A DNA stretch of 62,503 nt, the filler included, from Collodictyon triciliatum (Eukaryota), in NCBI GenBank assembly GCA_043381765.1. It is 3 parts of 3 records of this genome, joined end to end, with 100 filler letters (N's around TTAATTAATTAA, not from the genome) between each part and the next. Parts side by side here need not be neighbours in the genome. Positions count along the whole stretch, not along the records: positions 25,643 to 54,009 come from JBHJMP010000054.1; 2 more parts are not named here. One strand, written 5' to 3'. The notes below the pieces were generated by a model. That model saw only the letters and a list, made by a program, of their open reading frames with translations. It searched no databases and was not told where the DNA came from. Below are positions 12,663 through 48,015 of the stretch, piece by piece. Each line of letters begins with the position of its first letter. Positions within the stretch are counted from its first letter, which is position 1. Made by a program: the position numbers and the translations under genes.

Positions 12663-16267
<3,605 letters not shown>

Positions 16268-25642: not shown

Positions 25643-26790
25643 AGCCGGCAGTGGACTTTGCTTAACCGGAGTATGGATACGCGTTTGTGGTTTTAGAAAC
25701 ATACGCTCCTGCTTGCTCGGACTGTCTTTGGTGTGTGGAGTTCCAAGCTTGGATTCGACTTGTGCTGTATGTTCTTGCTCCTTGGTTCTCGGTGCGACGG
25801 GCTGGAGCAGGGGAAACGGACTATCTTTGGTGGGCGCTGATTCTTGTGTTGCCTTTGCTTTGGAGTATCCTTTCGGGTAAGTAACGAAGACTGCCTTGAT
25901 GCCTTCTATGTTAACCATATTCCCGTCAGTCTGAATGGGTAGTTTAAGGGGGGATTTCTTTCGGGGTTTGAAGATGCGCTTCTCTTGGGTCTTGCGTTGT
26001 GCGGGCTTGTCCGGTGTTGGCGGTGATGGATGACTCGAGTGCGAGGATTCTGAAGAGGAACCGAGATTTCCTTCCATGTCATCGTCGCTGTCGCTGTATG
26101 CGCGTATATGTTGTGAGTCATGTGGACTCTGATATTGCCTGGCCTTGGCTTCCTTGACCCCGTTGCTGCTTGTCTGCTTGGCGGGTGTATTCTTTTGCTG
26201 GGGCTTTTACTTGTCGTTAGTTGTTCGCGGCTGGCGGACGCTCTTTGAGGATGCGCTTTGGACACTTTTTGCCCATGATCGTAAACTTTGCAGGGAGCTG
26301 GTTCTTGTGACAACGAAACTTCACCACGGCCGTGTCTGTGAAGAAAGCCTTTGTCTCCTTTAATCTCCACGTGGGTCGGTCTGAACGGCTTCAGCTCCTA
26401 GCGAAGGAGTTGCGGCCACACGTCCAGCGGTAGTTGGTAGAGCATCACCGAGGTCTCTGTTGGTTTACTTCTGCTGAAGCTGGTCGTAATATCGCTCAAA
26501 CTTGTCTGCTTCAGCTCCAAAAGCTTTCGGGCGTTTTCTGCAGTGCGGAAGACAATCAGGCAAAGGCCTTCACTGTCCAGTAAGCGCAATTGGATGGACT
26601 CTTCCCGAAGTTTGTTCGCTTTCAAGGAGGAAGTGAGCGCGTCTGTGAGCCTGCGGGCCTTGTTCTTGTTGTAAACGACTTGCTCGACCCCGTGCAAAGA
26701 TACTGTCCGATCAGACAGACTTGCAGGCGGCTTCCTTGCACGGGTTTTCCTAGACTTACGCGCAACTCGGGGTTTTTTCTGCAGCAGCGT
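25643..26790 (-). pseudogene. Degenerate intronless ORF resembling non-LTR retrotransposon ORF1 (RRM-like domains plus Pro/Ser/Lys-rich tail), truncated by the gap
   Basis: ORFs 26973-26398 and 26370-25906 are one frame broken by a single TAG (WPQLLR*ELKPFRPTHVEIKG), followed by a frameshift into 26077-25643. RRM-like blocks are LCLIVFRTAENARKLLEL and TSVMLYQLPLDVWPQLL. GC-richer than the flanks. Confidence 0.45.
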
Positions 26791-27977
26791 TGGAATCAAA
26801 AGAATTATCAATTTATTTTCCACAATTGTCAAACTTATTAGAGGCAACAATATTATCATTTGATTGCAATGCATGCCCTTTAGAGAAAATCGCCGTCCTT
26901 GTAAGGAAGGTATATCGAAAAATGGTGTAACGGATGCTGTCCAAGAATAGGAAACGGAGCACTGTGGCCACAACTGATTCTGGAGTTAAGATAGATAAAT
27001 TCAATGAATTTATACATAATGGATTAATTTAATGAAAAATTCAATAAAATTACCCACTTCCGCTAAAATGCTTCATTTTCACTGGATGTCTTTTATATAA
27101 CTAAGTTATACATATATGCATATTTATTCCAATAAATTTTCCTGTACATTTATGGAAGCAGAAAAAAAAAGAGGTTGTCTTTCGCCTCGCACCCTAGCGT
27201 TTTCCCGCCAGCTCTTTGATGACTGGTGGTGGGGCACGAGTGATGAGGAGAGTTTGTTGATGGCCTCGGAAATTCCCTTCACAGGTCGCCCATTCAGTAC
27301 CGAGGAGGATCACTTCTCAGAGCCCCCCACAACTCTCACATCTGTGATGCCCACGTCGGTATTACACTTCATATGCAAATAACTATCCTTTTTTTTCTTC
27401 TTTTATTTCCATTTTATTTTGTTCCTAATATTTTTATTTGTCTTATTGGTTTCAATCGCCTATTTCGTTTTCTATTCGGGTAAACTATGTTCATCCACTT
27501 CTTTGTTTTTGTTTGTATTTCGTCTTCCCCCTCTTTTTCTTTACTATTCCTATTTGATGGAAGAGCAGGAAAAAAAAATACAAATTGTTGCAATGGTTGT
27601 CAAATCGAAGCAGACGTTGGACTTGGCTTTTGTTCTGCCTTGCGGCACGCTGATCCTCAAAGAACAGTGATCTATGATCTTTTCTGGATTCCCCAAAACT
27701 CATCACGCGACAATGCCGATCCCCCTCCGTGTTTTTTTTTTTTTTTTTTTTGGAGGTGCAGGGAAACCCTGCTTTGTGAATCGATCAGGCCGATTTCGAG
27801 CTTCTTCTTTCTCTTGGGTTGTGATTATGTGCAGCTTATTGACTCTACTATGAGCGCCATACACAGTTGGTTTGAAGATAACTTTGTCTCTGATTCAACA
27901 GTCGACCGAGAAGCCCGCTGAAGATCGGACCACAGCTACACACTGCTTTGCGGCAGGAGACACAGGAAGGCCACACC

Positions 27978-30900
27978 ATGAGACAGACAAGGCCGAGTCG
28001 GCTTTGTGCTGGGGCGACAATGGTTTCTTGCCTTGTGCTGCTCTTTTGTGGTCGCGTGTTTGCGGTATGTTTATTCCATTGGCATAATATATACTCTGAT
28101 GGGGGCTTTTACCTTTGAATCGTACCTGCCATATTATATATATATATATCTTGTGCCGGTGATGTGGGATGTTTTTTTTTTTTTTAGTTTATTTAATTCT
28201 ACCCTTTACAAATTATTCATCAACTAGTGAATGATAGACCCGCAAATAATGATGATTAAAATGAAATCAAATGAAATCAAATGAAATCAAATGAAATGTA
28301 CAGTCAGGAATCATCTTTCGAAAGTACTCTGTGTGTTCATATTTTTTTCTTATCTTTACCTCTACTTTCTCGTTCTACCCAAAGGGGCGCTCTTTGGTTT
28401 ACAGCCACGCCGATCCGCCCCAAGACGAAGGATGGGAATATCCTACCGATCCGGTGTTTATACCAGGCCTGTTCGACATTCGACACTTCAATGTCACTTA
28501 CGATGACGCAGTGGCTTACTTTGATATCACCTTTGGAAACGTGACAAATAGCTACTTCGCACCTCTTGGTATGTCTCCTCACTTTTGATTCATGAGTGTA
28601 CTGCTGGGTTCTATAACGATTTATTTTGTATATTTATCTTAATGTTTGGGTTCTACTGGTTTCTTTTATTACTTATATCAATGTATTTCTGGCCGTCATG
28701 AAAAAAACACACACAAATATATATTTCCTGTGTAATAATAATAATAATACTAATACCCTATATTAAATTATAGGGTTTTCCCATCAGCTGTGCCAGATAT
28801 TCGTCGATTCAGATAGGCGCTTTGGCAGTGGATCAACGGACTCACTATCGAGCAGATACTACTCCACAGCATTCCTGACTGATGAGGCGCCGTACGAATT
28901 CACAATCTATCTTAGAGGGTGGTCATCCTATGTCAACATCGCAAGAAATTCTACATTCATCGATCCCAATCAAATCGCTGTGATGCCCATCGTAATCTTC
29001 TAATCCTCAAAATAGATATTAAGATGATTCATTATTATTATTTTTGTTACTGCATGATGTCGTCGAGTTTGTCTTATGATTTCTCTCTTTCTTTTTTTTT
29101 TTCCTTATGAAATCGCGATATTCCTCCTTTGTTTTCTCATCTCAGCCACATTTTTAGGTCGACAGAAACACCATTAGCATCCCAGTTCCCCTGAACATCG
29201 TAATTATATTGCAAAAAAAAAAAAAAAAAAAATCATAATCATAATAATTTTTCCTTTATTCGATTCAAGGAATNNNNNNNNNNNNNNNNNNNNNNNNNNN
29301 NNNNNNNNNNNNNNNNNNNNNNNNNNNNNNNNNNNNNNNNNNNNNNNNNNNNNNNNNNNNNNNNNNNNNNNNNTGAAAAAAAAAAAAAAAAAAACAATAG
29401 CATCATCATCATCATCATCATCATCATTTTAAGAAAAATGGTGTGAAGCCAGAAGCATTTTGATTCTAGGGAGAGAATATAATATCGCCGCATTTCTATT
29501 TTCCTCCTTTTTTTTTTTTTTTATGTATAGATTGGAATTCCTAACGAGAAATGGGCTTACGTTGTTTGGTGCGGGTCAGAAAATTTCAACGGCTTTCGTG
29601 ATGTGATGAAAAATCCAGCCCAGTATTTTCTTGGGGGTGGTTCTGACAAATATGTAGAAACTCATGTAAGCAAAACTTTTATCGTGTCATAATATTCCCT
29701 TGAATATTTAACCTTAAGACTTATGAATAACATATTTTTTAATTCGCTCATTATATATATTTGCAATTAATATGATTCACACCACGTTATTGAAAAAAAT
29801 CTTTTCAGATTACTGATTTTTTGGCTGAGCCTGGATTTATCAAGAGGACTACTTTCGATTCCTACTTAAAAAATAATCCGTCGTATGTCTATCCTGTCGG
29901 TGTGAACCTCTACACTCCGAAGAGCCTGTATACATTACAAGACTTGGCGAAGTAAAACACTTTTCTATCGTATTCTCCTCTCTCTCTGAAACGGCGGGTC
30001 GGTCTACTTATGAATATGTTTCTTTTCCCTGTTTGTTGCATCATGTGTGCTTTCGGCTGTCTTGCAACCAATTTTTACAGATTTTTGAAATAATATGGAT
30101 TTATTTACCTTCGATTATTACTTTTATATTTTTTATGACTTCAGCGACACAAGGGTGGTTGAATATACTTACAGAAATCTTTCGTCTTGCTTTGATATTC
30201 TATCGATCGAGGTTCTTATTTTGTCTATACGTGAAATGGAATGTGCATCAAATCAAATAGATATTTTTTTTTTTAAAAAAAAACCTGATATCTCCACTTC
30301 TATTTTGATGTACCCCCAAACACGTAACCTGAGGACTTACGTCTTCTTCATAGATGCTGGAAGATACAAAACACGTTATCTTTCGCATCGCTATGGGAGA
30401 GTTGGAAGAATCAGCCACCAAGAATAATGGATTCAACCACCTTATTCTCCAGATATATGTGGATACTGACAACATGTATTATATATTTTGGCTTCATAAT
30501 AAACAAAGCTCTTGCTTTCCCTGCATTTTTAACACTTCAGACGGCTCATACTTTTTCATATCACAGAGAACTGATATTTCTTTTTGCATGTAATGCAATT
30601 ATCATATCTCCTTAGACTCAAGTCTGGAAGCAACGACTCTCAATTCAATGGAAAGTTTTCTTTTTGGGACAACAAGTATGCGCACTCGTTATTGATTATT
30701 TTGTTGTATGCATTGCATTAGTAGCTGTGGTAGACTGTTTAATCATGGTGCACTCCTATGAACTGCCTTATTTTTTCTTGCAATTAATCCTTTTATGTTT
30801 ATTTTCAGAGGGTGGGAGTTTATGGTCTCTGTTGACCCTGACAAGGTGACTGCTGTAAAATATTCAGCTGGGAATTATGAAACCATCGACTTGACAAGAT

Positions 30901-33900
30901 TCAGTTTTATCAGAGCTAATAGTCGTATCATAGAGGTTAGATTGCCAACATATTTTTTTTATGAGATACTTGTTCATAGAATGCTCTTTCACGAAATAAG
31001 AAAACTAGTCATCTCCTGCCTTACTATTCTAGCTGAAAGTACCAAAGACTTTCATCGATGGACTTCCATGTATCGATCGTAACCTTGATTGGTATGTAAT
31101 GGCTAGCTCGGGCATAGCATCATCATCCAACTACTTGAATTTGTGCCAGAAGGTAATAAACTTTTTCTTTTCTTTTTCTTTCTCCTCCTCTTCTTATATA
31201 ATTCATATATATATATAGCTGAATCCTTTTGCACTATAATCTCACGAATACGTCAGTGAAATACACACGTCATGTTCTTGAATAGAGTTGCTACAGCACT
31301 GAGATTGGACCGCTGACATCAAACGTCATTGATATACTCACTCCCAAAAATATAAATAATAAAATGGTAAAATAAGCCATTATTCATATTCGATCATTGT
31401 TAATTGATTGTGTTCTACTTTCAAATAAGGTCTAATCCGACATCTAATTAGATTTTTGGACAAGAAATTCCAAGAAACAATCAGATAAAGCTTCCGTTTT
31501 CTAGCAGAACAGGATTAACTATGCAGGAAATGTTTTTCGTTGAAGATGTAATCGGTGATGAGCTAACCTTCTACCCAATTGGTGGAATGGGGAGCATTCT
31601 TGACACAAATTCAGGACTCTTTGATATTGTGTGTTTACTTATTTCTCCCTTTCAATCTGTCGATGTTCATATGTAAATTATCTTTTTCTTCTTTGTGCTT
31701 TAATCATAGTTTTGATCAATTGCAGGTCAGCTTTGGTTCATATTCCGATTCATCACTTGTACGGTTCAGTATCGAGGTTCGAAGTATCCAAAATAATAGG
31801 AATGGTATATTTACTCTGCCTTATATGTTTATTTTTCTTTTTACCCTGTCATCTAATGCAATCATGATTTAATATCACCTACATTTGGTTCGCTACTCTT
31901 ATCATCCAAATTTTAATTTATCTCATACGATAGGAGTATATCCTGTCATACAAATATCCATCGATCAAGATAAAATATACTGGTCTGGTCAGACATCTAG
32001 CAGATTCAACAGCGGGATTGACTTTCATCCACAAAATGCCTATGAAATTACCATATTGGTGGACCCTTATGGTTTCAACTGCTCAGTAATTCTTTTTATA
32101 CAAACCATTTACTTGTGTACCCTATGATACAATTTTTTTGACAAATAAATTAACATGAGAAGATGGTTTAAACTGATAAAGATTGATGAACGCATCTAGT
32201 TTGTATCACAGAGCATGAAGATGGTAATTGACAAATGTGCCGACTATCAAGGAAATATCATTACTGCTTCTATCCGTCAAAGTACATTTGGTTCTACCCT
32301 GAATAATATGACATGGACATACTCTGTGTTTTCTGGAATCCGCTCAGGTACACCAAAATTATTATTACTCATCCCAAAATCTTGTTAATCCATCCATTGT
32401 CTCCCCTTTTTGGTGTGGTTGAAATATCCACACTTTACGCAAATGATATATAGGTATTGGTGAATTCTCTAGCCTGAGTGACGATTCTGGGGGTGCTTCA
32501 TATGACCGCCGAAATCCTGGTTTAAAATACAACATAGTGGATGTATTGGCCAGTGGTAATTTTACAATATTATCTTCCTATCGCACACGCTCCATCTCTT
32601 TCAAAATGAAGGGAAGAATAAAAATGTTTCTCTTTTCATCTAAATCTTAGTGTCTACTTTCTTTGCCCGACTTTATTCCTCACTCCTTGTTTTTCTAGAA
32701 ACCACTCAGAAAGAAACCATCAAGTATTGGAAACAAAATGCCCTTTTTCTTCAAGTTCCGTTTGTTGGGACAAGTGTGATGCATCTTTGGTCAGATGCGC
32801 TATATGATGTAACCCTTAAGATATATATTAAAGCACTGTTCCCCCTTTTTTTATTCTATATAAAATTATACCTTAAAAAGTTTCAATAGTTTTCCTATAT
32901 TTGAATGTGAAGCTACCTTTTTGAGAAGAAAAACTATCATAATTGAAAAAAAATCAAAAAAAAAAAAAAAAGGACGCTATCGGGGATGAGTTTGGATTTT
33001 ATCCCTTGAACCCCTACTTCACCGGGAAGAAAGGTAGCACGTTACATCCAATATAACGTCGAATTTCTCTTTATTGGGCCTATTTATTGGGCTCATTTAA
33101 CAAGAAAAGTATACATAACTGAATGTATGAAATTATTTTAAAATGGTTTATATTAATATAATTATTATCATTATTTCCAAAAAAAAAAAAAAAGGCCTCT
33201 TTGATCTGCAGTCCTTTTCTGTTCAACACAATTCGGATATCACAAGATTCGCTATGAAAATTCAAACCCTATCAGACACGATAGATGCAAACTTACCTGT
33301 TGGATTCCTTGCCACACAAATATACATTGACACTAACCGCATCCTAGGAAAAGGATGCACAAGTCCCATTGGAAACGCAAATATTATGCCACACCCACAG
33401 TACGCTTGGGAATATGCGTTGTTTTCATTTGGGAAAACCACGTATCTATACACATGCGATTCAATCGGCTTTACAAAAATCAATGTGACTGTCCCTATCT
33501 CTCGTCAGCGCTCATTGCTTTATTTTGATATACCGTCGGACGGCATGCCGTCCCCTACAAATACCTGGAATTTTGTTGTTGTCTCTGGCGCTGTTTTTGA
33601 CCAAAACTTGGTATTTGAAAATATTCCTCCGATCAAAATTTGTATACCAATCCAATTTATTTCTTTATTTTTCATATTTTATTTTATAGAGCTATCCCAT
33701 TTCTCTTCACCATGTCAAATTTTAAATAGGGGAATCTGGTTCAATTTACTGAGCAGCCAACAAGCATGAGTTTCGGTGGAGGTAGTATGAGTAATTTTGG
33801 TGTCAATATCGCGGACGCATTGCTGTATTCAAATGTTATTCAATTATCTCTATTCAAGAACTATAATGTACCAAAGTAAGTTCATTTGTCACACTTGAGC

Positions 33901-35788
33901 GTCAAGATATTATCAATCAAATTTATTTTTCTCCTGTAATAGTTTTTTATCCTAAGCCACTCAATGATGATACCAAAGTAAAATTTGTATGAATAAAGGA
34001 AGAGATACTCTATGATACCCCCAGTGGGGAAAAGTATTGTGGCTGGCGGTGTTGTATGGGAGAAAATTGATGCTACTGGAGACGAGAGGGGTGAATACCC
34101 TAAGAGCATAGCTCAGCATACTGTATGTGTAGTTTTATCACTGAAGAGCGTCCCCTTCAAATATATCCTCAATTTTGAATCTCGTTGCCTTATTTTTTTT
34201 TTTTAAAAAAAACAAAACAAAACAAAACAAAATGTCAAGTCAACTAAATATTTTGCGGATAACCTACTGACAGAGAACTATCTTTACAGGGCAAAGGGCT
34301 ATTCGACCTTGTTAACTATTCAGTCGAAGCGATGGACAACTATGCTGTATTCCGTGTTGCATTAGTAACTCTACAAACTCTTCCGAATGAAATGTCCACC
34401 AAACCAAAGCATACTATATTACACATTTACATCAATATGGATGGAAACGCACAAACGGGAGCAGCCGATGTATGATCTTTCTCATTCACACATATCTCAG
34501 GAGCTCATGCAGCGCTCTTGATTTATTTATTTTTTTTTTAAAAAAAAAATTAAAGAAAATGACTAACTTGGGTAAACGCGATTTTCAGTCTCTCTACAAT
34601 GCTAATGTACGAACTGGGTTGTCATCTGGATGGGAATTTGCCATCGTGATTGGTCCAAGCGGTGCTCTTCTGCACAGCTACAATGAAACCAATAAGATTA
34701 CATCGGTTCTCTTTCAGTTACAAAATATTTATGTGAAAATTTGTGAGAGAAGCCCTGCGCTTTGCTATCTTTTTAGTTTAGATTTCAAATTATTAATTTT
34801 ATACATAAACTCCAAGGTAATGACATTAGACTGGAGCCTAATAAACTGTGAAGGCGACTCGGTAGTTGTTCAAATTCCTAATAATATAGTCGGAGTGCCT
34901 CAACCCTCATGGTCCTATGTTGTCCTTTCAGGTAGTGATATTTTCTATAAAAATGATTGTTTATTGGCCAATTTTTTATATGGTTAAGTATCTTCAGAAT
35001 AAACATAAAATAAAATGACTATACCATGACAAAAAAAAATAATTAATCTAAATACACAGGAATGGAGTCGTCTACACCATGGATGTTTGTTCCTTATGCA
35101 GAACAATCCACACAAACCACATTTGGTGGTGACATAAAGTCGGCATACACACCTAATATCGTTGATATACTGACGCGCTATCCCTCCGACCAAGACACAG
35201 TAGGAAACATATATTTTTGCATTTTAGATGCCTTTCATTTTTCATCTATACCAAATATGATTTTATTTTATTTTCTCGTTCCTGCATATCTAACTATTAC
35301 TCTTGACTAAACTTAATAAAGTTGACTTTTTTTTTTGTTTCGAGTTTGCCTTGGTCTTAATATCCCAAAAAAAATCTATAGATATTTTCTAGCCACAGCT
35401 CGAATAGTGAAGCTAGGATTGTCATACCTTTCATCGGTGGCTCTGATATCCTCACCCTTTTTTCAGTAAACGATGCCCTGTCTGATGAATTTGGGCTATA
35501 CACTACAAACCAAGATATGGGAGGCACCAAGCCCTCCGGATTATTGGACATTACCCACTTTGACATTAAGTTCAACTGGACACACTTTGTTTTATCTATA
35601 GAAATTCAAAAACCAATCAAAAATCCACACAATTACACGTTTGGATTTTCATTCCCAATTATTTCGGTCTACTGCCACGAGAATGTCATGGTGCTCACTA
35701 TTTTATGTGACCTTATCTCATGATGCCTACCAAATTTTGAACACCATTGAATTTGTTTTTTTGTCTTTTTCTTTTTCTTTTCATTTTA

Positions 35789-35882
<94 letters not shown>

Positions 35883-38800
35883 NNNNNNNNNNNNNNNNNN
35901 NNNNNNNNNNNNNNNNNNNNNNNNNNNNNNNNNNNNNNNNNNNNNNNNNNNNNNNNNNNNNNNNNNNNNNNNNNNNNNNNNNTTTGGAGATATATGACTT
36001 ATAATTGAATTGTTAACTTTCATAGAAACCTGGAAGATATCTTCCAGCAGACAAATCATTTGTCGACCTCAACTTTCCGTGGATTTGGATGGCTTTAATG
36101 CATGGGGAGGGTCGATTGTTCCGCTACGGGCCAAGTTGGCCCGGTTCTATGAAAGATATTGAGGCTCTTGCTCAAGACAGTCTAGAGCTACAGTTCGATC
36201 GTGTTTCAAACCAGATCAAGGTCTGTGTGAATAGTAGATACAATTTTTTCTTTTAATGAGATATTTATCGATACTCTATGCCGCAATCTAATCTAATCGT
36301 TATTCTTTAAAATCGAAGCTTTTTATTCCGACGGATTTTGGTGGTGTCCCAAATCCCATGTGGCAGTTCTCAGTACTGATAGGACTTTACGACCCTACAT
36401 CTGGGGACTTTTCGCTGCGAAATAAAGAGCCATCTACGGTAATTGTGACTATTACTTATAATACTAGCTCTTATCGCTAAAAGATGGCCAAATATCTCCT
36501 TTGCAAGTGACTGATGACTACATAATTGAATGTAAAAGTAATATCATACCTACGGGACCCTTTCATAGCGCTTTCTCGGAGGTGGGGATGACGATTTTTA
36601 TGACCCTAATGTGGCGGACATGATTATACCTTCTGTATCCGCGCAAACCATTATCCGCTCAAACGAAAAGGTATTCAAAACAAAATGTATTTTTAAAGAA
36701 GTCCGTCTGTCGTTATTTGTGGACATCTTTCGCTGTTCATACAATTTTCTGCTTTCTTTTTCTATTTCTTCCAAATTTCATTTCTCTTTTTTTTTTTTTT
36801 AAAAAAAAAAAAAAAACATTCCGAAACATTTTTTTTTTNNNNNNNNNNNNNNNNNNNNNNNNNNNNNNNNNNNNNNNNNNNNNNNNNNNNNNNNNNNNNN
36901 NNNNNNNNNNNNNNNNNNNNNNNNNNNNNNNNNNNNNNCGTGTGTGCCTATCCATAGCTCCCTATTGGTGATATTAAGCATTAGAGAGCGGCGATTTGGA
37001 AGGACATGCGGGGTTCGTGCTTGTCTCCAGCTCGCGGTGAGCGGGGTGTGGGTGATGCCCAGTGTTTCTCCCCACTGTTGATGTTTTGACTTTTTGTAGG
37101 GTGTTGGCGGCGATATATTTTATCGAAAGAATTTGGAGTAGGCCATAGCCATCGAGAACTGCATAGACTGCGCACCGTTAGACGAGCGTTCGTTCTTGAG
37201 GCGGAAGAAGAATGGCGACGGGATGTCTCACGAGATTGGTCTGCGTGAGCGCCATTTTCCTTTGTTATTCAGGACGGCTGTGGTTGGCTATGCATCGTGT
37301 GTGCAGAATGTGGTGGAGCCTGGCGTTGTGATGTACGAACCGTCTTCTTTGAATGAGATTTGGGTGTCTCGATTCAAGTTATACAACAGGATAACGCTCA
37401 AGCATCGCCTATCGTTCTTATGAAATGATACACAATCTATTGAAACATGAATGAATTCTGATTGCTACGGCGAGTTAAGCCCGTGTGCGAGATGACAAAC
37501 GCAGAACCCGAAGTCTCATTTTTTCCTCTTTTCTTTTTTTCTTTTTTTCTTTTTTTTTGTTAGGTCTCTGCACCCTCAGAACGCCAATTCCAATCTTGTT
37601 TATAGCGAAAAAAATCATATCTCGGAATCATAAAGCACAGCGCCCACATAAAGGCAATTTCTATGAAAGCCCGTTTTTATGATTGACTATAAAGAAACAA
37701 AAACTCATTCTCCATATGACACAGTATTACATGAATCAAAAAAGAGCCCGCTCCTGCAACACAACAGACACCCCGCGACAGCAACCAAGTGTCCCACTTC
37801 AAAAGACCTCTCATCAAGTCAGCCAGGAGAAGGAGTATTGGAAAAGAGAGTGAGAAAGAAAGACCCAAGACCTGGAGACACGAGTTAGTCGCAGAGACAA
37901 GAGGCCGCGCCAGAGAGCTGACATTTCTTTTTTTCTTTTTGTCAGCTTCTTTCTCTTTTTTAACATAGACTCTTCTTCTGATACATATTGCAGAACCAAA
38001 GAATGACCGATCACGTCCGACTCCAATCTTCCGACATCGCCCTTGGGGACGTAATTCTTGCCGCAGAGGACTACCGTATTCTTCGAGCCATAGACAGGAA
38101 GTCTAACAGCCAGGTGGCTGTGAAGGAGTACCAAAAGTCCCAGCTGCACAAGCCTGAAGACGTGGGAGCAATTATGGAGGAAGTCCAGAAGCTTGTCAAT
38201 CTGCCCAAAAACGCCGGCTTTGTAACATACGTTGGTGCCTATGTGAGCGTTGGGACGCTGCACATTGTCCGCGACTTTGTGGAAGGCAAAACCTTCACCG
38301 AGATCATTCCGACAAACACCCTTGACGTCAGGAAGATCAAAGAGATCGGCGTCAAGATCTGCGACAACGTCCGCTTCCTGCACGAACACGGCGTCTACAA
38401 CTACAACATCAAGCCAGACAACGTGATTCTCAAGGGAGACGGTAGCATTGCGCTCTGCGACTACGCCATGTTGGAGCTGCGCGAGAGTCTCCAACGCCGA
38501 GGAACCTCCTCCAAACGCGCAGACATTGCTGTTGCCCCGCCAGAAGTCTTTCGCAACGGTTCGTATGCGCAAGAGAAGAGCGACGTCTATTCTATCGGGC
38601 TCATTCTGTGGATGCTCAACGCAAAGAAGATCCCCAAAGTCCGCCGCTTTGACACAAAGGGAATTACGGATCCCGCGCTGAAGGACACTCTGACAAGAGT
38701 CTTGAATCAGACGCCCGAGGAAAGACCTTCGCTTGCGGAGCTTCGCGCGCAACTCTTGTTGTAAGCGCCTTTTGATGACAGCCCTTTATACCACGACGCC

Positions 38801-41673
38801 TTTGCCTCCTGTCGAATCGGTATCATCCGGCTCCTTTTCTTTCCATTTCGGTGCTATCATCAAACTTACTCTTTCCTGGCATCTAGGCCCAGCCCTTAAG
38901 TCATCATCAGAATAAATATTCACCATGCTTGGCGGGCCTTCACCATCTTGCGAATATTTTCTATCCTTTTTTTTTTTTTGCAGCGGTCTCGTTCTCGTTC
39001 TCGTTCTCGTACTTTCTTCATCTTTACCTATGGCCATTTTGTCTTTTTTTCCCACCCCATTTCCCTGTGTTTTTCTATTTCTATTTTCTCTTTTCACAAC
39101 CCTTCTAGTGATCATCTCCCAGCGCTAAACGGCCTATCCGACGACATCTGTAACTGATTCTCTTGGTCGACTCAAAGCCGAGAACGGCAACCATACAAGA
39201 TACGAGCGAAGGAAAGTTTGTGTATGTGTGTTAAAGAGCAGAGGTACAGAAAAGCGAGTTGCAGTGACAATTCGCCACTAGGAAGAACTCAGTAAAGGCG
39301 AGTCGGTCAGATGAACAAGTCAGCTGGATGAGGACTGAACCAACAGCCAGAGCCTGAATCTAGGTTGGTAGATATCTTTCGCTGCTTCCTAATAGTTGCC
39401 TTCACTCGCGGTTGGGTTGAGGGAGCCATGGCGGTGATGATAAATCTTTGAGTGCCTTTTGAGTCTGTTTAGTCCCTCGTTCGATGTGTACCAAAGTGTT
39501 GACCAAACAATGTCCCACAACACACAATGTCAACCTCTTGCAACCTGCTTCCAACGACGTTTTTTTTAATCTGTAGCGAGAACAGAGATGTCCACATATA
39601 AATTCCACTTATGAATAAATTCAATGAAAATAGGTTACTTTCCCTATCTCTTCGACAAAGAAAGCTGATTCTTAGACAGAGAACGCCAACCACCAAGCAA
39701 AGGCAAGCGAAACCAAGCTTGAGGTGTTCTGAAGTACCTCTCGGTCACTCTGAAAAGGAATCAAGAAAGAACAAGAAAAATTAGCTGCTTCGAAGAAATC
39801 AAGCTCGCAGGAGAAAAGCGAGGAGGGTTCCTTGCGTCTTGATCGAGTATGTCTTTTCTTTCCTTACTTACCCTTCTCATCCCCAAAGGAAACCAAAGCA
39901 AGACCGATGGCCCAGTCAATCGCCCTCGACGGCTCCAAGCTCAAACCCGTTGAAGACCTTCCTTGCCCACCAGACTTCCGCATCTTTCGAGCCATCGTCC
40001 TCGATAGCGGCAAGGAAGTTGCTGTGAAGGAGTACCAACAAAGCCAGCTTCACATGCCCGGGGATATTGCCGTGATCATGGAGGAAGTCCAGAAGCTGGT
40101 TGATCTGCCTGCTGCAGAGAATTTCGTTGCTTATCTGGGTGCCTATGTCCAGACTGGAGTGCTATACATCGTTCGTGATTATGTGCCTGGGACAACCTTC
40201 ACAGAGGTCATCCCGTCAAACACCTATGATGCCGAAAGGATAAGAGATATCGGTGTTCAGATGTGCGACAGTGTCAGCTTCTTGCACCAAAACGATGTCT
40301 ACAACTACAACATCAAGCCTGAAAATGTGATTCTCAAGGAAGACGGAAGCATTGCCCTTTGTGACTACGCCATGTTGGAGCTGCGTGGCAGCATTCAAAA
40401 GAAAGGTCCCACTTCCAAGCGTGCTGACCCTGCAATCTGCCCGCCGGAGCTTCACCGTGGCGCTGAATTCGCGCAAGAAAAGACTGATGTGTATTCCATA
40501 GGATTTATTCTGTGGATGCTCTGCGCGAAGAAGATTCCTAGAGTTCGTCGTCCCTTCGACCCAAAAGTCATCAAAGACGAGAAGCTGAAGATTGCACTCG
40601 CCGCTGCCTTGAAAGATTCACCCGAGGTCAGATGTACCCTTGAGGAGTTCCGTGCGTTTCTCTCTCCATAAATATGGGTTGCCCTTTCTCGCTCCCAATG
40701 GTCTGTTTCTCATGGGGATACAAAATCCCCACTGCGCAAGGAGTCTCACTCATCACACCGAGCAGACACCCTATCGCCGCTTGAAGAAACGGCCTCTTTG
40801 GAAATCAATAAAGGTTTACCGAACCACTCACGTTCGATTTGTCTGGGGTGATTATATGTAGAGGACGAAATCGGCTGCGTCAAAAATCACAAATTGACAG
40901 GTTGTGCGAGAGGAAAAAACGCGCAGGTTTAAAGCAACTTACAGTTGATATGAATTATACATTATATACGAAATTATTTGTTTACACATCAGCGAGAGCG
41001 ATTCTAAATATTGATATCATGTCAAAAACTTTATTTTCCACAAAAATAAATAAAATGCGGAAAATAATATTTTTGTTCTTCAACGGTCAGCTTTTCTTTG
41101 CCGCTCGCCGTCCGCACAGAAACACCATTTCCCGACAACCCCCTAAAACCCTGCTTCACTAAACAAAGGCCTTCCACACCAATCGAAAAGGATTCCATTT
41201 GCCACGCATCTTGTTTGGAAGGAATAATCCTTTATAAAATAGGCACATGCCCCGCCCCGCGTTGCTCTTCAAACTCCCAAACTCTTCAAAGGCCTTCTTC
41301 TCTTATCGTATTTGCACTAAGAGAACACCTCTACGCAAAGCGTAGGGTCGAACGGGAGAAGCAGTGCCAATACCCAATGAATGGACTCGATCGAAGCCAC
41401 AAGAAAGCTGATCAGCGTAACGTGGATGTAATGGATCAACTTGGACGGTACCAGGCATACCTGACAAACGCCCAACAACGCGCAGGTCTAAAACCTTTTT
41501 TTTTTCCCCCTCTTCTTGTGTCTTTCGCTTTCTTGGCTCTTTTTTTTTTTGTCCAATACCAAAAAGATAAATAAAAATAATCCAGCAGAGTTTATTCACC
41601 ATTCATTATTGATACACAAATCATGTTTTGTTTCTTGCTTTCGTTTTATTCTGACTCCTTTATCTGCAACCTG

Positions 41674-41711
<38 letters not shown>

Positions 41712-41716
41712 CCACC

Positions 41717-41755
<39 letters not shown>

Positions 41756-42046
41756 CATTCCGAAACATTTTTTCTTTATCATCGACCACATTTTAGGCCG
41801 TTTCTGATGTACAAGTTCAAGATTTTATCCTTTCCAACTATGATGTTTTAAAGCAACAGCGAGCAGTTGTTCCTACCATCGGCCTTTTTTCAAAATTCTA
41901 TCTTGTCGATTGGTATAATCCACGTAAGAGAACAAACCACTTTATGGATGTTATATATGCTGATTCAGCGGTCGTGATATTATCCATAGTTACTTATCAA
42001 TTGAATGATTTGTATACTTGAACAAGAATACCATTCTGTCTGGGGT

Positions 42047-42096
<50 letters not shown>

Positions 42097-42205
42097 NNNN
42101 NNNNNNNNNNNNNNNNNNNNNNNNNNNNNNNNNNNNNNNNNNNNNNNNNNNNNNNNNNNNNNNNNNNNNNNNNNNNNNNNNNNNNNNNNNNNNNNNTTAT
42201 ATTTT

Positions 42206-42293
<88 letters not shown>

Positions 42294-45200
42294 ACTCTCC
42301 TGATTGAACCTTTCATAACAATAAATAAAGCAAACGAGCCTACTGGAAGTCAACAAGCGAGGAGCGGGCGATGGAATGAGCTCCGCACGATTTTAATTTC
42401 TGTCATCGTTCCGGTCTTTGTTCTGAGCGCTGTCTTTCTCTTTGTATATACCCGACAAAACAAGAACCGTCTTGCCGACCTGGGCTGGAATGTTAATTTC
42501 AACGAGCTGTCATTCATTCAGAAGATAGGAAGTGGTAGCTTTGGTGAGGTGAGATGTCTGATTGATATTCCAAAATACGATGGATTGTTCTATATCAAAA
42601 TATTCGCCTCTTTAAACAAATACCGAGCTAGATCACACTAACTTCTATCATTCTATAATTGTATATGCGCACATATTTTCTTGCTTTTTTTTTCTTTAAC
42701 ATCGTTCTATTCTCTATCATACAATCACACGTACTCAACTAACTTTGCCAGAGCCTTGAAATTGCAAGATGAAAACTATATTGAAAATGATAATGATGAT
42801 ATACGACTTGGCCCTCAATAGGTTTATAGAGGAGAATGGAGGGATTCCACTGTGGCTATAAAGACACTCTTCGACAAGAACTTATCCAAATCATCGATAC
42901 AAGATTTCCAGAGGGAAATAGCTATCATGTGGTGAGTGCATTCTTCCTCTTTAGTTGGCTACGAATCTACTCGCTACTTTATTAAACACTATAACTCGTG
43001 CATTACAATATACTTTAACCATTTCAAGCGAGCTACGACATCCGTGTCTATGCATGTTTATGGGTGGCTGCATCAACCCACCAAATTTGTTTATCATTAC
43101 AGAATTTATGGACAGGTTACATTTTACCCCGGTTATTTCCTTTGTCACCCCAACGAGCATGATTATATGTCACATTCTTTATTAATTTTTTTATTCAGAG
43201 TATATTCATCTTATTCCTTTTAGGGGGTCGTTGTATGATTTACTCCAAGATGAGAACTTACTGTTGTCCACCTCACATCGCTACATGTTTGCACATGATT
43301 CTGCAAAAGGTATTGTTATGTCATCCTATTGTCATTGTGTAAATGACTCGCTACCTTCCAACGAGGAGCTGAAAATCTATTTGTAGCCCACATCTTTTCC
43401 AGGCAGCCGGCCCATTAAAGAAGCCAGTATGTCCTAAACATTCGATTTTAGGTATGAGCTTCCTTCATAGCCACGACCCCCCGATAATACACGGAGATAT
43501 GAAATCGGTCAACATCTTGGTAGGATGTTTTGTTCAACTTTGTTGTTATGTTATGCTGAAGTGATCTTCTGCAATGCTTAATATGCTCCATATTACCTCA
43601 GGTGGATTCAAAATGGCAGGTAAAAATCAGTGATTTTGGACTCTCTCGGTTTAAAGGATCTAAGGCCAACTCTGCAAATACCACTTTCTCGCTTATGTGG
43701 GCTCCTCCAGAGGCAATATTATCCATTATTCTACGTTTCCTTTCTTCATAATATTAATAAAAATGAATGTTTATCTCCATAAATGAATTGCGTGGGAAAT
43801 TTGACTGTTTTTTTTCTGGAATAGATATGAACTTATTAAATGCATTTGATTAGGGAATCTAAAAAAAAATTATCATCACTTACTCAGGTACTCTCTGGTC
43901 AGCCTGCTACTGAAAAAAGCGATGTCTACAGCTATGCCATTGTTCTGTGGGAGATTTTTAGTCACGAAGAGCTTTACTCCAACATAGACCCATCTTCAAT
44001 TCCCTTACGCGTCCTTCGAGGGCACAGGTTTCTTCTCTTATCTTGTTTTGTTTATTTTATGTTATTTTATTTTATTTTATTTTATTTTATTTTATTTTTC
44101 TGTTACGTCTTATCCTTTCTCTTGAATGAATATCGTTGGCTGAGTATATTTTCAGTATATTAAAGACCTTGTCTTCCACCCACCCCCCCTCCTCCTCCTT
44201 TTTACAACGAATTTCCGACAGACCACCTATAAACGACTATATCGCCCAAGTCGAAGGCATTGAAGGTATATTGAAGCTTGGTTGGGACACAAATCCAGAC
44301 TCTCGTCCGACAATGTCGGCGATAAGAAAGCAGCTCTCAACGCATCCTATTCTGACTTCATCGTCCCCTTACCCTCCATCTGCAATGGCCTCCACAAGTA
44401 TATCCTGTTTTATTTCAGTACCATTGGCTGTTTTTTTTTCTTTTCAGAAAAGAAAATGTATGTTCACAAATAATCATCTCTGCATAGTAATAAACCAGTC
44501 ACTAATTTTAGCTCCCCCGAGCGAGTCTCATCAAACAATGCACTCGAAGCATTGCATAAGAACTTTCGTGTATATGGATATTTTCATGAGCAATTTGATA
44601 TGGGAGCAGAATCCCGACGAAATGTACCATGTATGATTAAATTTCCCCTCATTATTCAGATTTTTATTTTTTTATAATAAATTAACAACACAACGTTGCT
44701 TGATTTAAATTAATGCCATAGAATTTCTTTAAAGTATCAACTAATCAGTTCACTCATGCATCTTATTATTCTCCCTCTCCCCAGGCTCTAAACATGTATA
44801 TATCGCTGATACGCAACTCCACTCCGCAATTCCAAGGGTATACATCAAATGACCTCTGAGTGCACTCTTCACACACTTTTCACTATGCACCCATGTGTGA
44901 AACTTCACAGCACATTATTCTGATGCTCTTACCATTCAATATTTATGTCTTCAGACAAGAAATTCGCATGGACTCTGATACTTGCTTTTTACTGTTTCCA
45001 TCTGCATTGTCTGCGCTTGAGTGGGCTCTGAAATTTCAGGTTTGCTTGTTTTCAAAATGAATTGTTAATTAGAATCTATTAATCTTACTTTTTACATATT
45101 ACTTACATTTATGCATGCTATCCCACTCGTTTGGCTTTCATTACTCACCCTATATTCCCTACCTATTTGAACAGGAGGCACTTCTTGACTTGGAATGGCC

Positions 45201-48015
45201 AACGCGTCTTATCCAAACAAACAAGTATTGCAGCAATCAGGTTTCCAGGGGTGGCTTGGTCATTTTTAATGGTCCACGTGTGCGCACTGCAATCCATTCC
45301 GTTTGCATCATTCATCTTTCTTTTATTTTCTTTTATTTTCTTTTATTTTCTTTTATTTTCTTTTATTTTCTTTTATTTTTCTTCTTCTTCTTCTTCTTCT
45401 TCTTCTTCTTCTTCTTCTTCTTCTTCTTCTTCTTCTTCTTCTTCTTCTTCTTCTTCTTCTTCTTCTTCTTCTTCTTCTGCTCTATGCATATAAATGTCTT
45501 CTACCTATGTATATGGCATTAAGGACCAAGGTCCGATAATCTCAAATATTCTATATAAACACTACACCGTGGTACAACAAATATAGTATGCATCCCTAAT
45601 CCCTGTCATGGCATAAAAATGAACTTCTTTTGAACGTAGGGTGAAGCTGGAATTCAGGAAAATCCCATGAACGGACAGAAAACCTTTATTGGGCCTGCTG
45701 TCAGCAAGATTCGCTATCTTTGTTCCATATTGGATGGTGGTCAGATAGCATTGACGGAAGAAGTAAGCTACACAAGGACTTCCTTGGCTCTGTCAATTTA
45801 AAAGTATCATTTTTCATTTTCAAAGAAAATAAGTTATTGTCTCTGTTTGTCCAGGCCTATGTATCTGCCCAATTCGACCACGCCGCTGGGTTCAAGCATC
45901 ACATCAAAGAACTAAGCTATGCAAATAATGTGGAAAGCCAATCAGACACAAAAATTTTTCAAGTTCTCAGTGATAGGCTAGTAGACAGGCAATATCGCGA
46001 ACTTCGGTTACCGTCGTCTATAAGTGCTGTGCATTTACCAGGAACGCAGACCCCAGATAAACACGAAGTGAGATTTACCATAGCGATGACTGCACTTCGA
46101 TTAATATTATGACTAGTTCTAATAAAATACATACAAGAGTGAGATTATACTTCCGCTCTAAATATTCTTTAAAACCATCAGGATACCGAAGAAAAACCAG
46201 CCTTTCATATCAACTACGATGAAGTCAAGCAAATTAGAGTACTTGGGACAGGTTCATTCGGACAGGTCCTTCTTGCAATGTACAAAGACCGAGAAGTATG
46301 TGCCATCTTTATATATTTATCGCAGAATGGATTGGTGATTTTTAATATGTTACTGGACTGTTCGACAACATTCTCTAAGCCTTATGGAGGGAAATTCATT
46401 ATTTTAAAAGGATTTTTTGGTTCATTTTCATAATATTTTCAATATAGTGTTGGAAAAGAAGTCTTTTCCATATTGACCTCTCGCATTTTAAAAATCGCGC
46501 TCTAGGTCGCTGTCAAGAAACTACTCAGACAAAAGATGACGCAAAAGGGGATAGCTGACTTCCGCCGAGAAGTATTAGTCATGAAGTCTGTTTAAAAATA
46601 TGTTACTTGTTATATTAAAAGGCGATACATTAACGCACTGGCTTTGTAGTGCGAACATATCTGAGTGAAAACCAGACATCATAACCAGCACATATTCACT
46701 TCTTTTTTTTTCTTTCTTTTTCTTTTTCTTTTTCTTTTTCTTTTCTTTTTCTTTTCTTTTTCTTTTCTTTTTCTTTTCTTTTTCTTTTCTTTTTCTTTTC
46801 TTTTTCTTTTCTTTTAAAAAAAGTTTACGTTTATTTTAAAAAATACTTTATTGTAGAAACCTAGACCACCCAAATGTTGTGAAGTTGATAGGCATCTGTG
46901 TTGAGATGCCAAACCTTTGCATTGTCCTCGAGCATATGATCCATGGGTCGGTGGAGGTTTGTGTTGATTTTTAGAGCTTGCATCATAGCATCACTACCTT
47001 TACTGGCTTCGGATATTGCACACCCACTAAACTTTCAGTACAAAATCAGTAAATGTAACCCAAAGTTTTGCTATGCTTTTTTTTTTTCTTTTTCCTTTCT
47101 TCTGTGCATTTGTGCTTAGGATTTATTGAAAAACAAGGATTTTCCATGGACAAATCCATTGCGGCTGCAGATGCTACAGGATGCAGCGCGAGGAATCAAG
47201 TATATTCACGACTGCAAACCACCAATCATACACCGTGACCTGAAAAGTGCAAACCTTCTTGTTGGGGGTGAATACATCGTAAAGATATGCGACTTTGGTG
47301 TCTCCCGAATACAGAACACGCAAAACACGATGACGAAATGTGGAACTCCAGCATGGGCCGCTCCAGAAGTTTGCCTTTTAGCATTACCTCATGACATATA
47401 ACAAGGACCAGCCAAATGACCAAATAACATATAAACAAAAGAAAGAAAGAAAGAAAAGCAATCATATTATACCTGAAGTTTTCTTTTCTGTTAGTCCATT
47501 TTGCCCTGATATATATATGTAGTTTGGTTATAATAAAAAAAAAAACTAATCATGAAGAAATTGCTTTCATTTACAAACACAGATTCTCCGCGGTGAGCGG
47601 TACAACGTTAGCGCCGATGTATATAGCTTCGGAATCGTCATGTGGGAAATGATATCGCGGCGACTGCCATACACCGAGCTTCGTCTGAGCCCGGCTGCCA
47701 TCACAGGGGAGATTGCCACCGGCCGACTCCGCCCACCTATCACATCAGACTTTAGCAAAAAATACGAGGAACTGATGAAAAGGTAACCGCAATATTATGG
47801 GTCACATTATCGTTATTTCCACACATTCACAGCAAATGCAAAATACAGTTCAATGCAACTCAATCTCATCTAAACTTAAATCGAATCACTTCTATTTAAT
47901 TTGGTTTAATTCAATTTCATCCCATACGTCCAGATGTTGGGACCACACACCAGAGACAAGGCCAAGCATGGAGAATGTTTTGATTGAGCTCTCTGACCCA
48001 ATTACGCTTCCTTGA
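27978..48015 (+). CDS. Large single-pass receptor: signal peptide, six glucodextranase-C/DOMON-like carbohydrate-binding repeats, TM, TKL kinase, class III cyclase-like domain, second TKL kinase (many exons)
   Basis: Exon 1 is MRQTRPSRLCAGATMVSCLVLLFCGRVFA (27978-28064). Repeat 1 is DPPQDEGWEYPTDPVFIPGLFDIRHFNV...GFSHQLCQIFVDSD. The TM is ILISVIVPVFVLSAVFLFVY (~42390-42450). Kinase 1 has GSGSFG, VAIK, HGDMKSVN, DFG and WAPPE. The cyclase has TFVYMDI...IFNGPRVRTAIHSG...GGQIAL. Kinase 2 has GTGSFG, VAVK, HRDLKSAN, DFG and CGTPAWAAPE. Stop TGA at 48013-48015. The model spans several gaps and a 5-kb apparent intron. Confidence 0.82.
38003..38764 (+). CDS. Kinase-fold protein, predicted pseudokinase (paralog A); CDS intronless
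   Basis: VAVK, IMEEVQKL, VYNYNIKPDN (HRD lost), CDYA (DFG altered), PPE and DVYSIG are present. First ATG is at 38003 after a probable 5'UTR intron. Confidence 0.85.
   Translation: MTDHVRLQSSDIALGDVILAAEDYRILRAIDRKSNSQVAVKEYQKSQLHKPEDVGAIMEEVQKLVNLPKNAGFVTYVGAYVSVGTLHIVRDFVEGKTFTEIIPTNTLDVRKIKEIGVKICDNVRFLHEHGVYNYNIKPDNVILKGDGSIALCDYAMLELRESLQRRGTSSKRADIAVAPPEVFRNGSYAQEKSDVYSIGLILWMLNAKKIPKVRRFDTKGITDPALKDTLTRVLNQTPEERPSLAELRAQLLL
39907..40671 (+). CDS. Kinase-fold protein, predicted pseudokinase (paralog B); CDS intronless
   Basis: Same motifs as paralog A (VAVKEYQ, IMEEVQKLV, VYNYNIKPEN, DGSIALCDYAMLELR, DVYSIG). First ATG is at 39907. Confidence 0.85.
   Translation: MAQSIALDGSKLKPVEDLPCPPDFRIFRAIVLDSGKEVAVKEYQQSQLHMPGDIAVIMEEVQKLVDLPAAENFVAYLGAYVQTGVLYIVRDYVPGTTFTEVIPSNTYDAERIRDIGVQMCDSVSFLHQNDVYNYNIKPENVILKEDGSIALCDYAMLELRGSIQKKGPTSKRADPAICPPELHRGAEFAQEKTDVYSIGFILWMLCAKKIPRVRRPFDPKVIKDEKLKIALAAALKDSPEVRCTLEEFRAFLSP
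42208..42291. repeat. (GTT)n intronic microsatellite
   Basis: Read directly from the sequence. Confidence 0.9.
45318..45477. repeat. (TTCTTTTATT)n followed by (TTC)n intronic repeats
   Basis: Read directly from the sequence. Confidence 0.9.

Follow-up and report, generated by a model that had tools for sequence, protein, structure and literature searches.

Here we report a receptor gene in Collodictyon triciliatum, located on a 62,503-nucleotide (nt) stretch of DNA from assembly GCA_043381765.1 (hereafter the window), in which three parts of three genome records are joined end to end with 100 filler letters between each part and the next; positions 25,643 to 54,009, which contain the gene, come from JBHJMP010000054.1, and all coordinates below are those of the window. 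We conclude with high confidence that a single gene of 51 exons specifies a membrane receptor of type I, which belongs to the kinase / cyclase-homology / kinase family and has the domain order signal peptide, six tandem Glucodextran_C domains, one transmembrane helix, kinase, cyclase-homology domain and kinase. The kinase-cyclase-kinase layout itself is already known, and what is new here is a six-Glucodextran_C ectodomain on this known receptor type. As the best explanation overall we favour, with moderate confidence, a receptor that combines a polymer-binding array, a two-kinase output and a mainly non-catalytic cyclase domain. The features on which this reading is built are as follows (aa, amino acids).

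27978-48015, + strand: receptor gene, 51 exons, 2282 aa, no internal stop
27978..28064, + strand: exon 1, start codon and 29-aa signal peptide (MRQT...GRVFA)
28406..29868, + strand: repeat 1, aa 37-242, exons 2-6
29941..31466, + strand: repeat 2, aa 267-467, exons 6-13
31545..32733, + strand: repeat 3, aa 494-693, exons 13-18
32973..33867, + strand: repeat 4, aa 719-923, exons 19-21, with the large exon 33195-33610
34069..35399, + strand: repeat 5, aa 948-1155, exons 22-27
35472..36667, + strand: repeat 6, aa 1180-1390, exons 27-30
36671..41796, + strand: intron 30, 5126 nt, GT..AG, holding the N gap 36839-36938 and two nested genes
41797..41923, + strand: exon 31, ectodomain juxtamembrane linker (AVSDVQVQDFILSNYDV...), 127 nt, joined by contigs on both sides
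42381..42449, + strand: transmembrane helix, aa 1451-1473, exon 32 (42331-42548)
42513..44336, + strand: kinase 1, aa 1495-1745, exons 32-39
44556..45974, + strand: cyclase-homology domain, degenerate, aa 1784-1977, exons 40-45
46233..47991, + strand: kinase 2, aa 2026-2275, exons 46-51

The gene model was obtained from our own spliced protein-to-genome alignment to P0089 (EP00002_P032505), a 2272-aa protein of Diphylleia rotans that contains six Glucodextran_C Pfam stretches (E 4.1e-97) and two kinase stretches; the RNA data were not used at this step. The ATG at 27978 is the first one after the 5' end of the transcript contig, the exons span 27978 to 48012, and the stop codon TGA occupies 48013-48015. 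The locus is AT-rich and has many short introns, 49 of the 50 measuring 82-407 nt and the remaining one 5126 nt. All introns follow the GT-AG rule except a single GC..AG intron inside kinase 1 (43713-43887), whose GC donor at 43713 was accepted because the exon must finish ...WAPPE as in the orthologue and there is no GT donor that fits the frame. The model built from homology alone matched 12 of the 14 listed contig joints exactly, and the two deviating joints were then moved to their RNA positions; exon 3 was lengthened to the end of a contig piece (28991), exon 27 to 35690, and exon 26 as far as a donor after 35199 that keeps the frame. At the start of repeat 2, exons 7-8 (30145-30211 and 30354-30475) were positioned manually, with splice sites and reading frame as guides, and the exons of this repeat are the least certain part of the model. 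The resulting protein is collinear with P0089 from end to end (995 identities in 2315 columns, 43%), and the alignment has no block absent at the positions of the four 100-N assembly gaps (29274-29373, 35883-35982, 36839-36938 and 42097-42196). The repeated motif described in the earlier note is also visible in the plus-strand frames read from stop to stop, followed by a hydrophobic segment and then kinase motifs near 42.4 kb.

The protein has one strong hydrophobic peak, at aa 1454-1472 (Kyte-Doolittle mean over 19-mers, 3.01), which corresponds to the transmembrane helix; after this helix come basic residues and then the Gly-rich loop of the kinase. The second-highest peak (1.94) is that of the N-terminal signal peptide. 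N-x-S/T sequons number 13 in the 1426 ectodomain residues versus 4 in the 802 cytoplasmic residues. Judged from hydropathy, an extracellular domain and a single transmembrane helix, both features of the Acanthamoeba/Physarum-type receptor family, are predicted to be present. Kinase 1 has the motifs GSGSFG, VAIK, HGD (non-RD) and DFG, and five of its exons match successive parts of the Pfam kinase profile (15-55, 58-83, 111-130, 137-174 and 179-215; best 28 bits). Kinase 2 has GTGSFG, VAVK, HRD and DFG, with a Pkinase match at E 2.9e-19 for exon 49 (piece 47120-47401 of an open reading frame, ORF) and 29.5 bits for exon 50. The exons of both kinases match PF07714/PF00069 in profile order. The sequence of signal peptide, transmembrane helix and kinase-cyclase-kinase proposed previously is thus present as a layout, but its central cyclase is degenerate, with the catalytic Asn and Arg replaced and the four of its exons that were scanned below Pfam detection.

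The ectodomain repeats lie close to where they had been placed from the raw sequence. Their envelopes begin at 28406, 29941, 31545, 32973, 34069 and 35472; the noted starts at 28385, 29930, 31540, 34060 and 35460 fit, whereas 32780 lies in the linker exon before repeat 4. Assignment of the repeats to the glucodextranase C-terminal/DOMON-like domain, as the earlier note had it, is borne out by Pfam, by a profile of prokaryotic sequences and by a matching beta-sandwich fold, the last for repeat 4, which was the one modelled. Single exons or ORF pieces were scanned against PF09985 (curated cut-off 22 bits), which was found in two of the four ectodomain pieces when raw ORF pieces were used. The cut-off was passed by single exons of four of the six repeats (1, 4, 5 and 6): the ORF piece 28295-28588 with exon 2 of repeat 1 scored 42.3 bits (E 7.9e-11; exon 3 of the same repeat, 18.4 bits), the piece 33131-33769 of repeat 4 scored 38.9 bits (E 9e-10), exon 23 of repeat 5 scored 22.5 bits and exon 27 of repeat 6 scored 22.9 bits. 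Exon 8 of repeat 2 was under the cut-off with 17.4 bits, and the two exons of repeat 3 that were scanned gave no Pfam match.

A second profile, a hidden Markov model (HMM) built from 12 prokaryotic domain sequences only, was run against the spliced model, with independent E-values (i-E) at Z = 1e6, and detected all six repeats near full length (i-E 8.7e-36 to 4.5e-12), as listed below.

Repeat 1: aa 45-241, i-E 8.7e-36
Repeat 2: aa 275-465, i-E 9e-18
Repeat 3: aa 512-689, i-E 4.5e-12
Repeat 4: aa 719-922, i-E 1.5e-30
Repeat 5: aa 948-1154, i-E 2.3e-26
Repeat 6: aa 1199-1385, i-E 1.6e-18

Modelled with AlphaFold2 on a 13-row alignment, the exon of repeat 4 (146 aa) is all-beta with 8 strands (pLDDT 78.4, pTM 0.75). 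Its sole Foldseek match in the PDB at E <= 0.001 is glucodextranase 1UG9 (E 4e-4, probability 1.00, TM-score 0.65, root-mean-square deviation 3.5, 144 columns), so that this repeat does reach the glucodextranase-C fold; ranked under it, with non-significant E values, are starch-binding structures of Sas6/CBM74. The match to 1UG9 came from the fold search only, and phmmer searches of the PDB, one with repeat 4 (P0001) and one with the complete ectodomain from D. rotans (P0003), returned nothing relevant.

An exhaustive HMMER search of cluster representatives with the large repeat 4 exon (P0001) gave 15 matches at E <= 1e-3. One of them, P0003, has six Glucodextran_C stretches and originates from the D. 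rotans transcriptome in EukProt, and 11 come from NCBI or metagenome sources, with no eukaryote proteome among the five that were looked up. The other three (P0002, P0004 and P0010) were dropped as relatives, being Ig-like repeat proteins without PF09985. Of three prokaryotic relatives scanned, P0006 combines the domain with a glycoside hydrolase (GH) domain of family GH57, P0008 combines it with GH53, and P0005 has the domain alone; P0019, retrieved with the ectodomain of the D. rotans protein P0017, is a further GH57 protein according to its precomputed Pfam list. The occurrence of the domain in prokaryotic carbohydrate enzymes, claimed at the outset, is therefore seen again in the GH57- and GH53-linked proteins.

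In the reading that we favour, the ectodomain array would bind an extracellular polymer, for which a polysaccharide such as a glucan is our best guess, since in prokaryotes the domain adjoins GH15, GH57, GH53 and GH65 catalytic domains. Ligand binding would alter the geometry of a receptor dimer, and the signal would leave via the two kinases. By analogy with the prokaryotic enzymes, carbohydrate is a putative ligand, which we propose tentatively. Two considerations weigh against it: the DOMON superfamily includes haem binders, and sugar binding by Glucodextran_C domains is without demonstration according to the available part of PMC10074034, so that the carbohydrate-binding status taken for granted in the earlier note is not established for this family. 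The same portion of that paper describes Glucodextran_C as a DOMON-like domain with a CBM9-like fold (CBM, carbohydrate-binding module) that occurs in glucodextranase and in GH57 amylopullulanase. An alternative holds that the ectodomain is no glycan sensor, and that its six DOMON-like domains bind haem, lipid or protein, act as a rigid stalk, or mediate adhesion of the cell to a substrate or to prey. We consider this somewhat unlikely. Besides the missing demonstration of sugar binding, it can draw on D. rotans paralogues of the cytoplasmic module that bear Kelch and Cu/Zn-superoxide-dismutase-like ectodomains, since such wide differences between paralogue ectodomains indicate that the cytoplasmic module accepts many sensor types. 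Against it, the prokaryotic relatives checked (P0006, P0019, P0008 and P0005) carry a glycoside hydrolase or nothing else, enzyme kinetics in the accessible text of PMC10074034 hint at a role of Glucodextran_C in alpha-glucan recognition, and starch-binding Sas6/CBM74 appears below 1UG9 in the fold search, although without significance.

The 190 residues that separate the two kinases can be aligned with cyclase domains that Pfam verified in P0024, P0104 and P0023 (phmmer E 1e-23 to 3e-22), the best homology being to P0024 (E 1.1e-23). Pfam gave no match on four cyclase-region exons of the window, the ortholog isoform P0020 scored 17 bits against Guanylate_cyc (cut-off 21.9), and P0089 had no Pfam cyclase match at E <= 0.01. 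Class III cyclases use six catalytic residues, namely two metal-binding Asp, the specificity pair Lys/Asp or Glu/Cys, and the transition-state Asn and Arg. In a motif alignment of six sequences, both metal aspartates (FVYMD, MDSD) and the motifs RxxIHxG and GGQI are retained in the window. The canonical VVNKAAR of P0023 and P0024 is replaced with AVSKIRY in the window and AVARVKA in P0089, that is, Asn with Ser and Arg with Tyr in the former and both residues with Ala in the latter. In the window, moreover, the purine-specifying Lys before the second Asp is Arg, and the Asp seven residues before the Asn position is Thr.

Because Asn and Arg are lost in both orthologs and the profile score is below the Pfam cut-off, we regard the domain as probably a pseudo-cyclase retained as a dimer or regulatory module; having kept the metal aspartates and lost the transition-state Asn and Arg, it would serve mainly in dimerisation or regulation and not in the synthesis of cAMP or cGMP. 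The conserved loss of catalytic residues therefore suggests a kinase-only output. This interpretation is weakened by the motif alignment covering only 6 sequences, and a heterodimer with an intact paralogue could still form one active site. According to the competing proposal, the receptor is a true nucleotidyl cyclase under ligand control, whose divergent domain would produce cAMP or cGMP by itself or in a heterodimer with a canonical paralogue. This proposal agrees with the cyclase activity assumed for the Acanthamoeba and Physarum family, with the retained metal-binding aspartates and the RxxIHxG and GGQI motifs, with the presence in D. rotans of paralogues with canonical cyclase domains (81-84 bits), and with the conservation of the domain between the window and D. 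rotans (phmmer E 6e-61), from which we infer that the domain is under selection. In view of the replaced Asn and Arg of VVNxAAR in both orthologs, the Arg/Thr in place of the Lys/Asp specificity pair in the window and the Pfam score under the cut-off, an active cyclase nevertheless appears quite unlikely.

Transcript contigs were assembled from the public runs X1 and X2, which belong to one study and whose kind is recorded only as 'RNA?', as it is for all three runs. The contig alignment covered 27700-45370, which adjoins a repeat at 45379-45478; contig cover is missing from 30650-31239 in all runs and from most of 29470-35369 in X2. Sampled words of 42300-48015 were present at a fraction of 0.32 in X1 and 0.27 in X2. 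Among the 15 joints listed out of 32, 14 are GT..AG joints of the receptor gene. The first of them in gene order, 28064|28385, occurs in contigs of both X1 and X2, repeat 3 has five successive GT..AG joints within one X1 contig, joints 36220|36319 and 36438|36569 of repeat 6 are supported by contigs, and so are four joints of kinase 1. The critical joint, 36668>41795, skips 5126 nt and corresponds in GT..AG register to the exon ends 36670|41797; it was found in one contig per run (X1 and X2), with a shorter side of 101 letters. The upstream joints 36217>36316 and 36437>36568 and the downstream joints 41923>42331, 42546>42820, 42930>43028 and 43113>43222 show the same per-contig depth values. 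Since the contigs join repeat 6, the linker exon, the transmembrane exon and kinase 1, the ectodomain and the kinases are on one transcript. The linker encoded by exon 31 is homologous to that of P0017 and P0089. Exon 31 also shares the gap-free contig 36939-42096 with both nested kinase-like ORFs, so that these are truly intronic and not a mis-scaffolded insert.

The proposal of a single receptor gene is accordingly upheld, both by contigs that bridge the ectodomain and the kinases and by collinearity with P0089. Several points count against it. All four 100-N gaps fall within modelled introns; exons 4-12 and 44-51 are supported by homology alone, the latter having no read evidence because they lie outside the contig-aligned stretch; among the contigs displayed, none covers the entire coding sequence; and X1 and X2 come from one study, which is possibly also the source of the assembly. 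That two genes, one for a secreted repeat protein and one for a transmembrane kinase, were wrongly fused by scaffolding or chimeric contig assembly, as could be suspected because the halves lie 5.1 kb apart, with an N gap and two further genes between them, and because the contigs are assembled sequence and not single reads, is very improbable given the exact GT..AG joint in two runs, the transcript order of exon 31 on the gap-free contig of the nested genes, and the independently assembled D. rotans protein that keeps the same order, including linker residues from both sides of intron 30.

The receptor has its closest relatives in D. rotans. With the exon of kinase 2 as query, 69 proteins were retrieved at E <= 1e-10, and the six best are all from this species; the best match, P0020, is 77% identical over exon 49, and its cluster includes P0089 as the 2272-aa isoform. 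The second relative, P0017 (EP00002 P006332, 1633 aa), is a longer isoform of P0003 that adds the transmembrane helix and the start of the kinase, and represents a paralogue cut off inside kinase 1. As judged from these similarities, the receptor apparently belongs to the known kinase-cyclase-kinase family, outside Amoebozoa. A search with the P0017 ectodomain, limited to proteins 898-2858 aa long, returned nothing beyond the cluster of P0017 itself and a single GH57 protein of a prokaryote. It scored the 7999 candidates sharing most words and cluster representatives only, with P0089 hidden behind a 742-aa representative, and because the search was restricted to representatives and prefiltered by words, it gives weak support to the rarity of the architecture in databases. 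The suggestion that the architecture had not been described holds for the literature, in which we found no paper on a six-Glucodextran_C receptor kinase (amoebal ectodomains are possibly listed in the supplements of PMC4053784 and PMC4758236), but two unannotated D. rotans proteins in EukProt have it. In the window, no further Glucodextran_C or kinase-cyclase-kinase locus was found at E < 1e-5.

The cytoplasmic module is also present in D. rotans behind other ectodomains. In P0092, kinase / cyclase-homology / kinase follows a Cu/Zn-superoxide-dismutase-like ectodomain, in P0022 and P0106 the module follows Kelch propellers, and P0025 belongs to the same module group. No Pfam cyclase was found in the two Kelch proteins scanned, and some other D. 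rotans proteins with this module carry canonical cyclase domains (81-84 bits). The positioning of the module behind superoxide-dismutase-like and Kelch ectodomains suggests that the family diversified outside Amoebozoa.

To describe the history of the repeats, a maximum-likelihood tree was built for 29 domain rows, comprising 18 eukaryotic repeats from the window, P0089 and P0017 and 11 prokaryotic domains, with the fragment P0007 omitted. The repeats cluster by position and not by protein. Repeat 1 forms one group across the window and the two D. rotans proteins (support 99/97), the three proteins are likewise together for repeat 4 (98/94) and repeat 6 (100/99), repeat 3 joins the window and P0089 (99/97), and the corresponding groups for repeats 2 and 5 have support of 93/91 and 84/68, respectively. 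Grouping by position implies that the six-fold array is older than the split between the two D. rotans paralogues and the organism of the window. The backbone between eukaryotic and prokaryotic rows is poorly supported, and the eukaryote/prokaryote label needs 2 changes on the best tree; a single origin of the eukaryotic repeats is not excluded by this topology. Because the backbone is without resolution, the prokaryotic origin rests on the distribution of the domain and not on the tree: derivation from prokaryotes, as suggested earlier, is plausible on the former count and left unsettled by the latter. The related suggestion that the domain was amplified and became intron-rich agrees with the six copies and the 26 introns inside the repeats. 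Three pairs of these introns share position (within 1 profile state) and phase, and 20 introns are unique to one repeat; the small number of common sites therefore fits intron gain or loss after amplification.

Intron 30 contains two intronless genes on the same strand as the host gene.

38003..38764, + strand: nested gene 1, intronless, 253 aa, kinase-like, Pfam Pkinase E 1e-24 (ORF 37982-38764)
39907..40671, + strand: nested gene 2, intronless, 254 aa, Pfam Pkinase E 6.4e-24 (ORF 39754-40671)

The two are paralogues with 59% identity (BLASTP), and share only 21-23% identity with the receptor kinases. As NYN replaces HRD and a Gly-rich loop is lacking, both predicted products are probably pseudokinases. 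A near-length database search with nested gene 1 found one homologue, P0107, which is 45% identical. Contigs have poly(A) loose ends at 38942 for nested gene 1 and at 40827 for nested gene 2. At their 5' ends, the X1 and X2 contigs of nested gene 1 have identical 20-21 unaligned letters, and their alignment starts at an AG after a pyrimidine-rich stretch, 10 nt before the ATG (37992-38005). Similarly, the 5' contig of the receptor has 22 unaligned letters before the AG at 27900-27901, and the contig of nested gene 2 has 19 before the AG at 39887-39888. The unaligned leader of nested gene 1 has no match in the window with up to 2 mismatches allowed. These letters could come from an oligo of the library, from a 5' exon far away, or from trans-splicing of a spliced leader; among the papers listed for Collodictyon, Diphylleia or CRuMs, we found none that mentions a spliced leader.

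Just behind the N gap of intron 30, at 36940-37361, every aligned contig differs from the window at many places (22 differences listed, 36992-37311), contigs end loosely at 36942, 37121, 37287 and 37361, and one non-canonical joint occurs (37162>37244, AT..TG). The contigs in this interval seem to derive from other, similar copies of a multi-copy element or gene family. Elsewhere in the window, the neighbouring plus-strand ORF 24019-25263 encodes an NHL-repeat protein (PF01436, E 3.1e-13), the plus-strand ORF 13722-14621 is a piece with PUA_2 (E 6.6e-15) and ATP-sulfurylase (E 5.8e-14) domains, and an Rfam scan of the window gave no match.

The kinase-cyclase-kinase families of Acanthamoeba and Physarum are very large and without a known ligand. 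The ectodomain described here suggests a concrete glycan-ligand hypothesis, because its relatives sit in glycan-degrading enzymes, and the question of glycan binding by this receptor also bears on the role of Glucodextran_C as a carbohydrate-binding module, which the enzyme literature has left open. The locus furthermore documents kinase-cyclase-kinase receptors in relatives of Diphylleia. In its most specific form, the hypothesis describes a pattern-recognition receptor for glycans in a lineage of predatory flagellates outside Amoebozoa, the relatives of Diphylleia. In this receptor, a prokaryotic alpha-glucan-enzyme module, multiplied six-fold and coupled to a kinase / pseudo-cyclase / kinase output, would sense prey or bacterial polysaccharide; we regard this version as speculative and, in all its parts together, unlikely. 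If it is true, the receptor would provide the first evidence of Glucodextran_C as a genuine ligand-binding module, the kinase-cyclase-kinase family would reach further back in time than Amoebozoa and their giant viruses or would have been exchanged beyond them, and the cyclase of this family would be shown to become a purely structural dimer module.

The C-terminal domain of Arthrobacter globiformis glucodextranase (1UG9, PF09985) resembles the repeats both in profile, above the Pfam cut-off, and in fold, and glucodextranase-type domains have motifs in common with them down to GFSHxLxQIYxD and FGGGDD..DPN. The prokaryotic Glucodextran_C proteins with an enzyme partner that were scanned have one copy adjoining a catalytic domain (GH57 in P0006, GH53 in P0008), whereas the receptor lacks a catalytic domain, has a signal peptide of eukaryotic type and carries the domain six times in tandem, with 26 introns within the repeats. 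The D. rotans proteins P0089 and P0017 match the receptor in the six repeats and their order, in the transmembrane helix and in a kinase, and P0089 shares in addition the degenerate cyclase-homology domain and the second kinase; they differ in coming from another species, in being derived from transcripts only, and in having no function or description attached.

For the cytoplasmic half, the earlier statement that the layout is known from Acanthamoeba and mimivirus is borne out for Acanthamoeba and giant viruses in the available parts of PMC4053784, PMC4758236 and PMC5203793, which extend it to Physarum. The accessible text of PMC4053784 (2013) reports 67 Acanthamoeba genes with the kinase-cyclase-kinase layout, which was then considered to occur in no other cellular organism and otherwise only in giant viruses, and the count for Acanthamoeba castellanii is given as 66-67 genes in the portions available of PMC4053784, PMC4758236, PMC5804921 and PMC5203793. 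From the same partial texts, Physarum polycephalum has 43 such genes (PMC4758236), the layout is noted as absent in Protostelium (PMC5804921), and an exchange of these receptors between amoebae and viruses is discussed (PMC5203793). As described there, the amoebal and viral receptors resemble the one reported here in having an extracellular domain, a single transmembrane helix and a cyclase-type domain between two Ser/Thr-type kinases. Compared by described layout, the present receptor is distinguished by its ectodomain of six Glucodextran_C domains and its degenerate cyclase, and its closest relatives, the top six matches to the kinase-2 exon, belong to D. rotans and not to Amoebozoa.

More distant parallels exist in plants and animals, where LysM and malectin-like receptor kinases and receptor guanylyl cyclases, respectively, may be regarded as functional analogies. 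The plant carbohydrate-sensing kinases would follow the same logic of a carbohydrate-module ectodomain on a single-pass kinase, and the animal receptor guanylyl cyclases that of combining a dimeric cyclase domain with one that resembles a kinase. In contrast to the receptor of C. triciliatum, both analogues have unrelated ectodomain folds and a different order and number of cytoplasmic domains, so that homology with them is limited to the kinase and cyclase superfamilies.

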